This document shows positions 39,715-46,029 of a DNA stretch of 64,000 nt, in pieces. A program made the translations under genes and the position numbers. Source of the DNA: Candidatus Adlerbacteria bacterium (GTDB lineage Bacteria > Patescibacteriota > Minisyncoccia > Phycocordibacterales > SBAW01); assembly GCA_003135635.1 (NCBI GenBank), contig PLCJ01000002.1, forward strand, positions 109,451-173,450. Reading direction: 5' to 3'. Below the pieces are notes generated by a model. The model did not search any database and was not told the DNA's origin. It worked only from the letters and a program-made list of their open reading frames with translations. Position 1 is the stretch's first letter. Each line of letters begins with the position of its first letter.

Positions 39715-39916
39715 TTTTTGTCTCCTTTCGTGGAAAACGGTATGTTAAAAGATCATGCGCCCCTATTGTACCATATACAATATACTTGTCAAGTAATACA
39801 AAAAGCCCATAGATAGGGCCATTTAATCAGAACCAAACGATCTTCTACCCCTGCGATGCGGGACTCGGATTTAAACCATACATAAGGTTTTGATACTAAA
39901 TAATGTTCTGAAATTG

Positions 39917-39989
39917 TGGACCCGAGGAGATTCGAACTCCTGACCTCCTCGTTGCAAACGAGGCGCTCTACCAACTAAGCTACGGGCCC
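39917..39989 (-). tRNA. tRNA-Ala(TGC)
   Basis: Cloverleaf, G3-U70, anticodon loop TT-TGC-AA. Confidence 0.96.
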
Positions 39990-40056
39990 TCTGGTATACT
40001 GTAGTAAATTATCCACACATTGCAATTCTCTCTAAAATTTTTATACTGAATTTCAT

Positions 40057-40494
40057 ATGTCTTTTTCTGGAAATCGATCAGCGAGTGCGTCTTTCGTATC
40101 CCCGGTCTCTTTTGAAGAGAAGGAGGATCATTTTGTGATACGAAACGGAGTGCGATGTGCGGGCGTGCACCTCATTGTTGATCTATATGAAGCTGAGCGA
40201 CTTGATGACATTAATCATATAGAAAAAACGCTTCGGCAGTGTGTTTTAAAATCTGGTGCTACACTCCTGCATCTACATGTACATCCGTTTGAAATAAACA
40301 ATGGAATCTCAGGGGTCGCTGTTCTCGCCGAAAGTCATATTTCAATTCACACGTGGCCGGAACGGGGCTATGTCGCGCTTGATATCTTCATGTGCGGTAA
40401 TGCAAATCCCGATGCGTGCATTCCTGTGTTGCGTGAGGCATTCAACCCAAAGCGTGTTGAAGTTAAAGAACTACTTCGTGGAAGCACCACATAG
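40057..40494 (+). CDS. speD: S-adenosylmethionine decarboxylase proenzyme
   Basis: HLIVDL, LAESHISIHTWPE, DIFMCG. Confidence 0.93.
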   Translation: MSFSGNRSASASFVSPVSFEEKEDHFVIRNGVRCAGVHLIVDLYEAERLDDINHIEKTLRQCVLKSGATLLHLHVHPFEINNGISGVAVLAESHISIHTWPERGYVALDIFMCGNANPDACIPVLREAFNPKRVEVKELLRGSTT

Positions 40495-40521
40495 GCGATC
40501 TGAGTTTTTTAGCGCTGTCTC

Positions 40522-40594
40522 GCACCCTTAGCTCAGTTGGTAGAGCACACCCCTCACACGGGTGGGGTCGTAGGTTCGAGTCCTACAGGGTGCA
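40522..40594 (+). tRNA. tRNA-Val(CAC)
   Basis: Cloverleaf GCACCCT...AGGGTGC-A, loop CT-CAC-AC. Confidence 0.96.
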
Positions 40595-40789
40595 CCCCCA
40601 CTTGCCCCACAGGCAACATTTCACCCCGCACAATAAGCTCTTTGAATAAGGCTTTTTTCGATTCATAATCAGCCTTTCTAATTCTGTCCTACTGACACGT
40701 TATAGGACTCGAACTTTTTTCTATGCAGAGAGCAAAAAACACCTTTCCCCTTACAGGTAATCAGTGTTCTTTGAGACTACACGACACAG

Positions 40790-41491
40790 CTATTCTATAA
40801 AGAGCCCATCTTGCCGGAGTTCATCTTTCATTAGGCGTTCTATTTCTATTTGTTTACTGGCTATGTCCCGTAATCTTGCTAGCGACTGGTCAGTGCAGAT
40901 GTCTTTTATAGATAGGAGGAAAGATGTGAAATTCGGTTGCCCCAGGATTAGGTTTTTTAATCCTCCCCAAATTGACGAATCCTTGATCACAAAAGTTTTC
41001 CATCTTGCGGGTAGTTCTCCACGAAAGACCAGATACTTGTAATCTTCAAGCTTTTTGTGAAGTCCGGAAGAAGCTAGTAGGGTTGCCCTTGCCAGTTGGA
41101 CATTCAGGTTCTTAAGCTTGGTGTTGCTGTTTAGATCATTTCCAACCGCAGATAGATCACCAAAGGCAAAGGTACCCTCCCCACCCGACTTGACCTTCCG
41201 GCATTCATCCCCAGAGATGACACCTTTCGGCAGCACATACATCTCGCCCAGGAGTCTGCCATACGTTTCGCCTTTCCAGTCTCTTATGGTTGCCCAGTCA
41301 GAGGCGTTATTTTGGAGATGAAACCCTAGATAGACAACGAGGATCGAGACTGCGGGAGATAGACACGCCGAGAGAAGTATAGCCAGAGTCGACAGTTTAC
41401 GGAAATTATGCAATGAACTGCTCCCCTCTGGCGAAATAGTAAAGCTATGTGGAAAATTGTCAAAGCTTGAGATTGCTCGGGCGGTAGTCAA
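40790..41491 (-). CDS. Hypothetical membrane-anchored protein
   Basis: 233-aa ORF with one TM; start uncertain. Confidence 0.5.
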   Translation of the reverse strand: MTTARAISSFDNFPHSFTISPEGSSSLHNFRKLSTLAILLSACLSPAVSILVVYLGFHLQNNASDWATIRDWKGETYGRLLGEMYVLPKGVISGDECRKVKSGGEGTFAFGDLSAVGNDLNSNTKLKNLNVQLARATLLASSGLHKKLEDYKYLVFRGELPARWKTFVIKDSSIWGGLKNLILGQPNFTSFLLSIKDICTDQSLARLRDIASKQIEIERLMKDELRQDGLFIE

Positions 41492-41515
41492 TTAAAAGAT
41501 GTCACGATATAGCTC

Positions 41516-41725
41516 ATGTCTATCGATAAAAAAAGCCTCGCCGAGTTTCGAAAGCTGTACCAGGAAGAGTTCGGAAAGTATTTGTCTGAGGATGATGCGC
41601 GTGAGATGATTACGCGTCTCATCAACCTCTATAAGATTATCTACAGTCCCTTCCCCGGCGAGCACGGCAACAAGCCTACGCCGTTTTCGGAAGATCGGCT
41701 TGATCCCAGTGTTTCTTTGGAATGA
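41516..41725 (+). CDS. Small helical hypothetical protein typical of CPR islands
   Basis: EFRKLYQEEFGKYLSEDDARE...LINLYKIIY pattern. Confidence 0.6.
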   Translation: MSIDKKSLAEFRKLYQEEFGKYLSEDDAREMITRLINLYKIIYSPFPGEHGNKPTPFSEDRLDPSVSLE

Positions 41726-41782
41726 GACCGTATTCCATGATGGGGTAACGAACGAAGATAATCGTGGTATAATCTCTCCTCA

Positions 41783-42403
41783 ATGAGGAGATACGCTTTC
41801 ATTGATGTTCATAATACTGCCAGCACCGCTCAGCAAATGTTGGGAATTGTTATAGATTGGGCTAAATTGTGTGATTATCTAAAAAACAAAAGGTCTTGTA
41901 CTGAAGTTTTCTTCTACACTGGGATTGATCAAGGGGACGCGGAAACTGCTAACGAATTTGAAGCACTCTCTAAAATCAGCTGCTGTATGGTTAGAAGTAA
42001 AGCCGTTTTCGCCTATAAGAATAAGGATAAAGTCGTCGCTCTTAAGTGCGTGAAGTGTGGTAACGAGAACGTCCATATTGTAAATATGGGTTATACAAAA
42101 AAATCCAATTGCGATGTGGAGTTATCTGTAGACGCAATTGAAAAATCAGGCCCAGAAGTCGAGCTAATGATATTTACTGCGGACGGTGATTTTGAATATC
42201 TTATACGCAAAGCCTTAGACAAGGGTGTAATCAAGGTTGAGGTCGTTTCTTATGCAGGTAAAGATATACAAGCTGGGATGACCATATCCAGGTTCTCTAC
42301 AAAGCTAAGAAACTTATTCACTGAAAAACCAAATAAGGTCATTTATACTTCCCTTAGGGACATAAAGGATATAATTAAGAAGACAGTGCCCATTGCTGCT
42401 TAA
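41783..42403 (+). CDS. NYN/LabA (PIN-fold) domain protein with CxxC insert
   Basis: AFIDVHN, KSNCDVEL, TADGDF; TGGTATAAT shortly before ATG. Confidence 0.85.
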   Translation: MRRYAFIDVHNTASTAQQMLGIVIDWAKLCDYLKNKRSCTEVFFYTGIDQGDAETANEFEALSKISCCMVRSKAVFAYKNKDKVVALKCVKCGNENVHIVNMGYTKKSNCDVELSVDAIEKSGPEVELMIFTADGDFEYLIRKALDKGVIKVEVVSYAGKDIQAGMTISRFSTKLRNLFTEKPNKVIYTSLRDIKDIIKKTVPIAA

Positions 42404-42446
42404 AATGAAAACGCCCCCGCTTGCGCGTGGACGCTCTCGAATGACT
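42402..42446 (-). ncRNA. Candidate about 45-nt sRNA convergent on NYN gene
   Basis: TTGCTA-17-TATACT (42480-42452); GCAA-capped GC hairpin plus UUUU. Confidence 0.55.
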
Positions 42447-42815
42447 TTTCTAGTATACACGCGTCAAGCGAAGATAGCAAACGATTGGGGACAGCCAAAA
42501 TAGACTTTAAAATATGACTAAAAAAGACCTCCTCGTCCTCTTACACCGGATAGCAGATTACCGAGCAACGTTCCGAACTGCTCCTTGTCCGGCGAGAGCG
42601 GTGAAAAGGCTACGCCGCCTTCGGGAGATCATCGCGACCCCAATGCTTCTTTTCCAAATGCCGAATAATTGCTAATGTTTGGAGAAACTCGGGGTCGCGA
42701 GCGTTGTAAAGAGTTCTAATTCTGTCCAAAGCTCTGCACCGTTAATAAGTCAGCTTTAAATTAAGCCACAAATGCTCTACAATTTTCCTATGGTTTTGAA
42801 TCAACTGTCTGATGT

Positions 42816-43343
42816 ATGGTAACCAAACAACTCCTCGATTACATCCACCAAAATCTTGCTGCCGGACTTACGAGGGCGGATATTGAAAAGGAATTACTTA
42901 CCGCAGGGTGGCAAGCGCAAGATGTTAGTGAGGGGTTTACTGCGATAGTGGTGCCCCCTCCGGTAGCATCCGCTCCAATCCAGCAGGCTCAAGTCTCTCC
43001 CACAGATGACAACGCTGCAGAAGTGGCCCGCATACAGCATGAACTTGAGACGGAGACAAGGCAGCAAAAATATCGCTCTTTGTACCACGGCGCAACCGCA
43101 AAGACTCCCGTAGTTGGAGGTATCATCGGATGGTTAGTTAAGAAAAAAATAGTCGAAGGAGAATCACAAGCCAACATCGCTTTGCTCGGAGTTGCGATTA
43201 TTGCAGTCGTATTGGCAGTTGGTATTTTTATATGGGGCAATAGTAGCGGCTCAAGCAGCACCGTCCTAACCCCGCAGCAGTTACAGGAAATGCAGCATCC
43301 ACCTGACTTAACTACTCCAAGCATTTCAAACACAGCCCCATAA
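42816..43343 (+). CDS. Hypothetical membrane protein upstream of pilin
   Basis: LLDYI...L..AGW N-terminal helical domain common in CPR; one TM. Confidence 0.65.
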   Translation: MVTKQLLDYIHQNLAAGLTRADIEKELLTAGWQAQDVSEGFTAIVVPPPVASAPIQQAQVSPTDDNAAEVARIQHELETETRQQKYRSLYHGATAKTPVVGGIIGWLVKKKIVEGESQANIALLGVAIIAVVLAVGIFIWGNSSGSSSTVLTPQQLQEMQHPPDLTTPSISNTAP

Positions 43344-43348
43344 CGATC

Positions 43349-43843
43349 ATGCAAATCACAAAACGCGGATTCACACTTATCGAACTACTTGTCGTCATTG
43401 CTATCATCGGGCTTTTGGCGAGCATTGTACTTGTGTCACTCAGCGGTGCCAGAGCAAAAGCCTACGATGTAAGTCGTAAAAGCGAATTGAAAGAACTCCA
43501 AGCTGCGCTTGAACTCTATTACAACGATCACAACAGCTACCCCTCTACCAACGGGCAATGGTGGGGTAATAGTCCGAATGGAGGAAATCAGATCAATTGG
43601 ATTCCAGGACTTACGCCTACGTACATCAGCGTATTACCGCAAGACCCGGTGTATACCCCGAGTGCCTGTGGTGGATGGGGAGGAGCGTATCTTTATAATT
43701 CAAACGGTATTGATTACAAGCTGCTTTCACACTGTCCACAGAACTCGAGCGTGGCAAACACACTAACAACCGATCCATTCTACGATCTCGTCCGCCCGAC
43801 TTGGGCGTGGCAAGTAGAGACGCCCGGCGGGGTAAATTGGTAA
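43349..43843 (+). CDS. Type IV pilin / GspG-like pseudopilin
   Basis: RG-FTLIELLVVIAIIG prepilin motif; ALELYYND..YP; LPQDP. Confidence 0.93.
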   Translation: MQITKRGFTLIELLVVIAIIGLLASIVLVSLSGARAKAYDVSRKSELKELQAALELYYNDHNSYPSTNGQWWGNSPNGGNQINWIPGLTPTYISVLPQDPVYTPSACGGWGGAYLYNSNGIDYKLLSHCPQNSSVANTLTTDPFYDLVRPTWAWQVETPGGVNW

Positions 43844-43955
43844 ATTTGAGAGTTGTTAGAAGCTTTCTTATAGAACTATTTGTGTTGCCTCACCTGGGCC
43901 GGTGCGCTACCGTAAGAAAACACCCGCGTGCACCAAAAACAGACAGTTTGATAAA

Positions 43956-44029
43956 CGGAGTGTGGTATAGTGGCATTACGTACGCTTCGGGTGCGTAAAA
44001 CCCGAGTTCGATTCTCGGCACTCCGACCA
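43956..44029 (+). tRNA. tRNA-Pro(CGG)
   Basis: CGGAGTG/CACTCCG, loop TT-CGG-GT, encoded CCA. Confidence 0.95.
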
Positions 44030-44099
44030 ATTATGCGGAAAGAATGAATGTTTACTCTTGGTTCGTGCTTTATTTGGCGCTATATTACAGACGCAGAAG

Positions 44100-44170
44100 G
44101 GGCCCGTAGTTAAGTGGTAAAACGCTGCATTCGCATTGCAGAGGCGCGAGTTCGATTCTCGCCGGGTCCA
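44100..44170 (+). tRNA. tRNA-Ala(CGC)
   Basis: GGGCCCG/CGGGTCC, G3-U70, loop TT-CGC-AT. Confidence 0.94.
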
Positions 44171-44288
44171 CTTAGTATAGCTTTTATGAAATGGAAAAGG
44201 GCGCCATGTGAAGTGTTCCGAAGAACTATATCCACTAATGGCACCCAATTTTTTGCTGCGTCTCAACAGGAAGCATCGAGCTAACTGC

Positions 44289-44741
44289 CTACCAGCCACT
44301 GGATGAATGGAAGGGCCACGGTTTTCTTTTTTCAAGTTTCTTTTGTCTCTCTGCCTCGCAAGCCGGCACAAAGACAATTACTGCGAGAACTACGCAGACA
44401 ATAAAGGTCTCCCACCGATCAACTTTCAACCAAAAATACAATGGCCAAGATAGGAATACTCCTGCGAAGAAGAAGCCCACGCTTCCACAAAGTAGACTCT
44501 CGCTTGCGCGCGAGTTATTTGCTGTTTTTCTGGGCCAGAAATCTTTTGCACCCACGAAGCTGTAACCGCCGGCACATACAAAAGTAATTCCTCCCAACAC
44601 CAGCAATATGATAGCTAGCAACGGAAAGAACCACCCCATTCGTAGTAGCACAAGGGGAATGAGAACGAGAAATCCGATGGTCACCCAGAACGACTGAGAC
44701 TTGTAGAAAACCTCTTCTGAGGGTTTTCCCGGTTGGTCCAT
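44289..44741 (-). CDS. ORFan membrane protein (4 TM)
   Basis: TTGAAA-17-TATTCC, SD GAAAGGAG, hairpin terminator at about 44195-44246. Confidence 0.65.
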   Translation of the reverse strand: MDQPGKPSEEVFYKSQSFWVTIGFLVLIPLVLLRMGWFFPLLAIILLVLGGITFVCAGGYSFVGAKDFWPRKTANNSRASESLLCGSVGFFFAGVFLSWPLYFWLKVDRWETFIVCVVLAVIVFVPACEAERQKKLEKRKPWPFHSSSGW

Positions 44742-44905
44742 TTGCCACTCCTTTCGGGTAGGCTGGTTGTAGCATCCACAACTGGAATAGCATGGTTAGC
44801 CTTATTTTTCAAGTTTTTTGAGTGATCACAATTGACAAGAGGTAAAAATAATTTTCGTACGCGTGAAATGCTTGACGCTATATCTCTGGGCATATATTCT
44901 GTCTT

Positions 44906-45267
44906 GCAGATGACCGGGCGGGTAAGTTTTGTGCATGTGTCTTAAAACTTGTTTGACCCTTAAAAAAGGTCGACCAAGTAAGTGCACGAAATAAAAATCG
45001 TGATCAGCGTATGAACTACCAAACAGATGGCAACATCTGCAACGTAGGCTCTACGTAGAAAATGATTTAGAAAGTTGACGTGTCACTTCGGTGCCATTGA
45101 CAACAATCCTTATTCGAACGTAGGTGAAGAAACGGGAACAATGATTCCGTCGAGCAATCGATAGAGATCGTTTTCACACTTCGCCGCAGCTTAGAGAGCC
45201 CATCGGTTCACGTCTTTGGGACATCTTGGGAGGATTCGACACAGACATGTCGGATCCTTTTTATTTT
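44906..45267 (+). ncRNA. Candidate large structured ncRNA (about 320-360 nt)
   Basis: TTGACG-17-TATTCT (44872-44900), long-range 5'/3' pairing, GCAA/UUCG hairpins, terminator 45231-45267, no long ORF. Confidence 0.6.
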
Positions 45268-45288
45268 CATCGTGATAATATTATCTAC

Positions 45289-46029
45289 ATGAGTGGTGGC
45301 TTGCATATATCCCTCGCTGCAGAGCGAGTAGGAAGCCTTTTTGGCCTTCCGATAACCAATACGCTTGTTACAGAATGGGTGGTAATCGTTTTTCTTCTTA
45401 TTGTTGGCATAGTGGTGGGTCGCAACCCACAGCTCATACCCGGCAAGATACAGAATTTTTTTGAGATGCTGTTTGAATTCGTGCTTAATTATATGGAAGA
45501 GACGTTCGGGAGCCGCGATCTGGCAGAGCGGTTTTTCCCTCTTATTATAACGATTTTTCTGTTTGTTCTCACTTCAAATTTTTTTGACTTTCTTCCCATT
45601 GTGGGGAGCATAGGCTTTACTCAGCAGGGACAATTTGTACCACTCTTCCGACCAGTCAATACCGATCTCAATGTGACGCTTGCGCTCGCGATCGTTGCGT
45701 ATCTGGTGATTGAAATCACTGGCATTGTGATGCTCGGTTTCTTGAAATACGGCTCAAAGTTTGTTAACTTTAAGACAGGCGTCATCGGATTTTTCATCGG
45801 TCTCATGGAGCTCATCAGCAATACCGCGCGCCTCATCTCGTTCTCGTTCCGGTTGTTCGGTAATATCTTTGCAGGCACCGTGCTTATTGCGGTTATAAGT
45901 TTATTCATACCGCTTATTCTTCCCGTACCGCTTCTAATTTTTGAAACATTCGTTGCGGTGGTGCAGGCGGTTGTGTTCGCACTTCTCACCCTTGTTTTTG
46001 TGAAGGTTGCCATTAGTGAACCCCATTAA
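45289..46029 (+). CDS. atpB: ATP synthase Fo subunit a
   Basis: PITNT, SFSFRLFGNIFAG, VQAVVF. Confidence 0.96.
   Translation: MSGGLHISLAAERVGSLFGLPITNTLVTEWVVIVFLLIVGIVVGRNPQLIPGKIQNFFEMLFEFVLNYMEETFGSRDLAERFFPLIITIFLFVLTSNFFDFLPIVGSIGFTQQGQFVPLFRPVNTDLNVTLALAIVAYLVIEITGIVMLGFLKYGSKFVNFKTGVIGFFIGLMELISNTARLISFSFRLFGNIFAGTVLIAVISLFIPLILPVPLLIFETFVAVVQAVVFALLTLVFVKVAISEPH

Follow-up and report, generated by a model that had tools for sequence, protein, structure and literature searches.

A possible orphan non-coding transcription unit, confined to a single species, upstream of atpB in Candidatus Adlerbacteria

Stand-alone bacterial small RNAs are transcribed from their own promoters to Rho-independent terminators, and they include species-restricted, or 'orphan', sRNAs. 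Among the longer and better-known RNAs of bacteria, tmRNA is encoded by the ssrA gene, which is normally present in single copy, and carries a tag frame that joins a resume codon to a hydrophobic C-terminal degron. 6S RNA adopts a rod-like fold with a central bubble and is about 180-200 nt long. Rfam also contains large ncRNAs of unknown function, such as OLE, ROOL, GOLLD, HEARO and the raiA motif. Here we describe a spacer upstream of atpB in a Candidatus Adlerbacteria genome. We tentatively favour the reading that this spacer is a species-specific orphan non-coding unit, running from promoter to terminator and predicted to give a stand-alone RNA of ~355 nt.

The window, by which we mean the whole stretch of 64,000 nucleotides that was analysed, corresponds to G000:C2:109451-173450 in an assembly of 602,608 bases that comprises 3 contigs and is 95% complete. 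Positions 44742-45288 of the window (~550 bases) are free of genes and lie between an ORF for a 150-aa membrane protein on the minus strand and atpB. On a crude map of ORFs of at least 70 aa, this spacer is the 14th longest of 513 gaps, and 24 gaps in the genome reach 400 nt or more. The opposite-strand ORF (44292-44741) is the sole upstream neighbour of the spacer. This ORF has AAGGAG 7 nt before its ATG, and it is itself an orphan: none of 87 family genomes has a relative, no Pfam family scores above the cut-off, and the ESM Atlas gives no usable lead. Its dicodon coding score is weak, being mostly below the 5th percentile (0.21) of the genome's coding windows, and these scores mark its codon usage as atypical. 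Because both the spacer and this ORF are absent from relatives, the ~1.1 kb from the tRNA-Ala gene (end at 44171) to atpB is, judged by sequence comparison, species-specific. In an independent peat sample from another study (DNA run X3), we found fragments identical to the spacer DNA with zero variants. No RNA data set is listed as containing this DNA, and an RNA run from the source study (X4) yielded no contig over it, a result that weighs neither for nor against transcription.

The tRNA genes next to this segment are arranged differently in the closest species, G018, in which the tRNA/speD block runs in the opposite direction to that seen here. The block made up of tRNA-Ala(tgc), a 148-aa gene, tRNA-Val, tRNA-Pro and tRNA-Ala(cgc) occupies 39900-44171 in the window and is inverted and compacted in G018 (L052 6900-7800). 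Compared with G018, there are extra genes here between tRNA-Val and tRNA-Pro, for example a type IV pilin-like ORF at 43349-43843 (PF07963). The sequence TTGACGCTATAT matches the region upstream of tRNA-Ala(cgc) at 11 of 12 positions, which by our estimate is within chance. We also considered a replication origin and rejected it, the spacer having 2 DnaA-box-like sites where 1.8 are expected.

The spacer ends in an intrinsic terminator on the + strand (45228-45267), which bears out the preliminary description of a terminator with a U tract at 45231-45267. Its hairpin (45228-45261) has 14 pairs, 11 of them strong, and a 6-nt loop; the core is AGGAUUCGACA/UGUCGGAUCCU, the arms AGGATTCGAC/GTCGGATCCT sit within the hairpin, and the T tract TTTTTATTTT follows it and ends at 45267. 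The hairpin alone gave a z of -5.6 and a mean pair probability of 0.91. Of the terminator-like sites in 20 kb, 34 were found where 22.9 are expected by chance, and this terminator is the fourth listed among them. The distance from the terminator to the atpB start is 22 nt. Since no co-oriented gene precedes it, + strand transcription reaching this terminator would arise in or upstream of the spacer.

A candidate for the start of such transcription is a sigma-70-like promoter on the + strand at 44872-44900, where TTGACG (44872-44877) and TATTCT (44895-44900) are separated by 17 nt. This candidate matches at 9 of 12 positions and has a predicted +1 near 44905-44908. The hexamers that had been proposed as the RNA's own promoter are thus present, but the quality of the match is at the level of chance: there are 4 such 9/12 matches in 2 kb compared with 3.1 expected and 34 in 20 kb compared with 24.7 expected, and a PWM trained on the upstream regions of the genome's tRNAs did not single out this site. 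A better -10 hexamer, TATATT (44893-44898), is found at a 15-nt spacing from the same TTGACG. In the unit that we propose, transcription would proceed from this weak promoter, with a start near 44906, to the strong terminator, and the predicted product would be a stand-alone non-coding RNA of ~355 nt. On this reading the candidate promoter would fire, the predicted transcript would be a discrete one and the RNA body may act beyond being terminated.

We examined the fold of the predicted RNA body (44906-45227, + strand) with the MFE structure and base-pair probabilities. The MFE structure is multi-branched with five hairpins. Hairpins H1 (44927-44991) and H2 (44995-45068) are well defined in the prediction, and there are smaller hairpins at 45074-45104, with a UUCG loop, and at 45123-45185, with a GCAA loop. 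The preliminary description had listed four small hairpins enclosed by a long interrupted helix between the 5' and 3' ends. Three of these hairpins are predicted with P 0.95-1.0, namely CAGAUG-GCAA-CAUCUG (45024-45039, contained in H2), CAC-UUCG-GUG (45084-45093) and UCGA-GCAA-UCGA (45150-45161), whereas ACGUAG/CUACGU has a P of 0. The long helix is retained only in its outer part, AGAUG/CAUCU (44908-12 with 45222-26), at P about 0.85; for the inner helices GACCG/CGGUU, GGGC/GCCC and UAAGUU/AGCUUA, P does not exceed 0.013, and a fold made to contain all four long-range helices is 8 kcal/mol less stable.

When compared with shuffled sequences, the + strand of 44906-45267 had z values of -4.09 and -3.8 in two runs and the - strand -1.7, values that are inflated because the limits of the region were those chosen in the preliminary description. 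Without the terminator, the body had a z of -3.2 on the + strand versus -0.8 on the - strand. The 5' half (~155-160 nt) had a z of -3.5, located in H1 and H2, and the 3' half (45060-45225) had a z of +0.6, that is, no excess structure. The central 362 nt of the gap gave -0.9. As a comparison, 41 coding windows of 362 nt had a mean z of -0.44 (sd 1.04) with a minimum of -2.95, so that none reached -3, while the genome's RNase P RNA and tmRNA had z values of -4.1 and -5.8. Among the long gaps of the genome, 6 of the 26 scored (from 45 gaps of at least 300 nt) had a z <= -4 on at least one strand. These predictions point to a moderate, strand-specific fold signal in the 5' half of the RNA, in addition to a clear terminator.

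The spacer is non-coding and ORF-free. Its + strand ORFs reach 29 codons at most and all lack a Shine-Dalgarno sequence, and over 44740-45130 every one of the six frames has a negative dicodon score, compared with 0.5-0.8 for atpB. Pfam families were found in none of the 19 stop-free frames of the spacer. We searched the spacer by tblastn with every ORF of at least 50 aa found upstream of atpB among 29 relatives, and the matches were all short and weak; the best spans 31 aa at 29% identity to an opposite-strand ORF of G018, and we rejected them all as chance. A full HMMER search with a 53-aa + strand frame returned one match, to a tandem-repeat protein, and this was rejected as an artefact, its 55 bits being summed over 8 copies of a weak match of 24 residues with at most 26.6 bits each. 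The preliminary description had also drawn attention to AGUAAGU-GCA as the opening of a 24-codon frame. Such a frame is present from the GCA onward, but its length is chance-like, a frame of 24 codons being open by chance about 1 time in 3 by simple arithmetic, and it ends in ...NVGST. A search of both strands of the rest of the genome for targets in trans gave 6 matches of 13-14 nt, where about 6 are expected.

Relatives of the spacer were sought at several distances. BLAST with 44860-45290 against 87 family genomes, 79 of them from the same genus, gave one 19-nt match (E 0.006), and BLAST with 44742-45290 against 400 phylum genomes gave only scattered matches of 22-39 nt in 10 genomes. We then built a covariance model from 44927-45068 (142 nt), with 47 pairs drawn from the MFE structure; its reach is limited because a single sequence and a predicted fold underlie it. 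This model recovered only itself, there being no other match among the 87 family genomes or 150 class genomes, and a search of 39 loci surrounding atpB yielded a single match at E 1. There is no other copy of the spacer in the genome, and blastn with 44172-45288 against phages and plasmids gave no match. Metagenomes yielded nine loci with AtpB relatives at up to 70% identity, none of them closer than G018 (79%), and the covariance model found nothing in these. No homologue having been found in these genomes and collections, and the X3 DNA being identical, there is neither an alignment in which base pairs could covary nor a class to which the RNA could belong. The suggestion of a new large ncRNA class, which had been tied to finding homologues and covariation among Patescibacteria, is therefore not upheld. 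In the portion of the full-text literature on structured RNAs in the Candidate Phyla Radiation that could be searched, we found no paper on such units.

We also compared the region with known RNA families. Results from cmscan of 44700-45400 against Rfam 15 showed no match at gathering thresholds and none at E <= 10, in agreement with the earlier view that the RNA is unrecognised. Within the window as a whole, ARAGORN found six tRNAs but no tmRNA. In the spacer, ARAGORN and cmscan revealed no tRNA-like domain and cmscan no RNase P match, again as previously described. A check for ssrA and rnpB elsewhere in the genome, which had been recommended, located both: the tmRNA is at G000:C3:39374-39753 (full-length RF00023, 90.9 bits) and the RNase P RNA at G000:C2:48783-49092 (RF00010, 111.7 bits). 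Two other candidates were tried and rejected. 6S RNA (RF00013) is unmatched in the region and in the genome, and the MFE structure of the spacer RNA is multi-branched; SRP RNA (RF00169/RF01854) is likewise unmatched in both, and SRP is absent from the lineage. Pfam models for SRP54_N, the SRP54 GTPase domain and the Ffh M domain detected nothing in the genome, and a search of it for SRP-GTPase motifs gave none. The Ffh M domain was found in 0 of 88 family genomes, and the SRP54 GTPase domain gave two 24-bit matches only among 121 class genomes. The loss of ffh and ffs in Parcubacteria has already been published (PMC4508563). Because the tmRNA and RNase P RNA are located elsewhere and SRP is known to be lost, the spacer is no missing housekeeping RNA. 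With no relative and no kinship to tmRNA or RNase P RNA, it is possibly a small RNA of one species, at most.

Some observations from these searches concern the genome at large. SRP RNA, Ffh and FtsY all went undetected in it. The tmRNA option of ARAGORN reported no tmRNA in the genome, despite the RF00023 match at G000:C3:39374-39753. ARAGORN also reported a 'tRNA-Stop(tta)' at G000:C3:117592-117665 (L064:993-1066), which is a program artefact and not a suppressor tRNA. An Infernal alignment gave this tRNA the anticodon loop CUUUUAA, making it an ordinary tRNA-Lys(UUU), and all 88 family genomes conserve it. Among stop codons, TAA is the most frequent, ending 199 of 367 ORFs.

The gene downstream of the spacer, atpB (ATP synthase subunit a, 45289-46029, + strand), begins at a conserved start, ATG 45289, with the N-terminus MSGGLHISLAAE compared with MHNGLEISLAAQ in G018. 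A -10 element, GATAAT (45274-45279, + strand), lies 9 nt before this ATG and downstream of the terminator. A hexamer with at least 5 of 6 matches to a -10 was found directly before the atpB start in 22 of 29 family loci, compared with 0-5 of 29 at control offsets; 29 of 30 loci were scored, our own included, with start positions inferred from tblastn, and L036 was dropped for having 232 nt of upstream sequence only. These data support the separate -10-like element that had been noted for atpB. The position of GATAAT implies a leaderless or near-leaderless atpB mRNA, and since atpB has its own -10 downstream of the terminator, its transcription would be independent of the spacer. The terminator would block any + strand transcription right before this near-leaderless promoter, and this halting of transcription would be the only function apparent from the sequence. 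Immediately upstream of the atpB -10, a hairpin and T tract are also visible in L014, L021, L030 and L042. The genes found upstream of atpB vary across the family. In G018, whose AtpB is 79% identical, a 211-aa orphan ORF that ends in a terminator occupies this place. A conserved membrane ORF of 168-195 aa is found there in 6 of 29 relatives; it is absent here and has left no trace in the spacer.

Other features of the atpB junction were seen in passing. In this family (loci L014-L042), the start codon of atpB is preceded at 6-15 nt by an extended -10-like box, often TGTGTTATAGT, which points to leaderless or near-leaderless mRNAs; in L017, L019 and L022, the upstream ORF has its stop codon within this box. 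In our genome, a 26-bp imperfect palindrome (45267-45292; arms TCATCGTGATAAT/ATTATCTACATGA, 10 of 13 positions complementary) spans the -10 and the start codon of atpB. It could be an operator or due to chance, and nothing like it was seen at that position in G018.

A terminator without a co-oriented gene before it, together with a strand-specific fold, makes a stand-alone non-coding unit the best single reading of the spacer. It is nearly as likely that the spacer is a non-functional remnant, DNA left beside a tRNA cluster by a decayed gene or by an insertion specific to the lineage. The promoter and fold would then be incidental, and the hairpin would be an old terminator that has survived or that is kept only to shield atpB. 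The fact that the whole tRNA-Ala-atpB segment is unique to the species is consistent with a remnant, as are the turnover of genes upstream of atpB among relatives, with the 168-195-aa ORF of 6/29 missing here, the chance-level promoter match, the unstructured 3' half and the atypical codon usage of the adjoining orphan ORF. However, neither tblastn nor Pfam detected a protein relic, the match of the 53-aa frame being an artefact, and the terminator stem is intact with its 11 strong pairs. The body is also more structured on the + strand (z -3.2) than on the - strand (-0.8). Moreover, no integration scar was found: the tRNA 3' end is not repeated in direct orientation, and the segment is not flanked by an att-like direct repeat. 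We regard it as rather unlikely that the spacer is a real, newly born structured RNA of ~355 nt in one species, one among several orphan promoter-to-terminator units of this 0.6-Mb Adlerbacteria genome.

The remaining explanations are much less probable. The closeness of the terminator to the atpB start, at 22 nt, could suggest that the spacer serves the atp operon as a long 5' leader, an attenuator or riboswitch that allows read-through into atpB when the terminator is prevented, all the more so as the hairpin contains GGAGG (45229-45233) and an ATG (45247) in frame with atpB. Yet the extension that this ATG would add to the N-terminus of atpB is non-conserved, atpB has a -10 of its own downstream of the terminator and ahead of its start codon, in a place common to 22 of 29 family loci, and the ensemble gives the terminator a P of 0.91 and shows no antiterminator that would compete with it. 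No riboswitch, leader or cis-regulatory family was matched and no relative has the element, so that a leader is very improbable. A role as mRNA for one or more tiny proteins seems more doubtful still. ATG 44910, which opens an 11-codon frame, is only 4-5 nt past the predicted transcription start and would be near-leaderless, and there are other frames of 19-29 codons, but these frames lack a Shine-Dalgarno sequence, do not exceed 29 codons, have no homologues and score negative for dicodons throughout. Least probable of all is that the RNA is a highly diverged relative of tmRNA or the founder of a new and widespread class of large, structured RNAs. Its size, the lack of an Rfam match and the open 24-codon frame after AGUAAGU might be taken to favour this, but the genome has its tmRNA and RNase P RNA elsewhere, the spacer has no tRNA-like domain, the frame is of chance length and ends in ...NVGST, and searches of 87 genomes of the family, 150 of the class and 400 of the phylum found no homologue. 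We therefore set aside the tmRNA-like identity that was proposed in the preliminary description.

If the spacer is transcribed, it would add one more lineage-restricted small RNA in the CPR/Patescibacteria, where RNA biology is almost unstudied, and would indicate that orphan non-coding genes still find a place in such genomes. If it were a newly born RNA of one species, this would mean that ultra-small CPR genomes quickly gain and lose large ncRNA genes in variable segments next to tRNAs. The spacer as it stands opens no long-standing question.

The spacer can be compared with several known systems. It resembles tmRNA (SsrA, RF00023) in length and in having an open frame after a purine-rich stretch, but it lacks the tRNA-like domain and is matched by neither Rfam nor ARAGORN. 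It is similar to RNase P RNA (RF00010) in length and in fold z (-3.8 compared with -4.1) but has no RF00010 match. Like OLE, ROOL, GOLLD, HEARO and the raiA motif, the predicted RNA is large, non-coding and multi-hairpin; however, those classes show conservation and covariation over many genomes, whereas the spacer is in one species and matches none of them. At its 3' end, the arrangement of a hairpin and T tract immediately before a proximal -10 is like that at the atpB junctions of L014, L021, L030 and L042, with the difference that the terminator in these relatives ends a protein-coding gene and here no ORF precedes it. Compared with typical sRNAs, the RNA, as predicted from sequence alone, is long at ~355 nt and unconserved, and its complementarity to targets is not above chance. 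By contrast, it shares with stand-alone sRNAs a spacer that is free of ORFs, a + strand terminator, a suitably spaced promoter-like site and stable hairpins.
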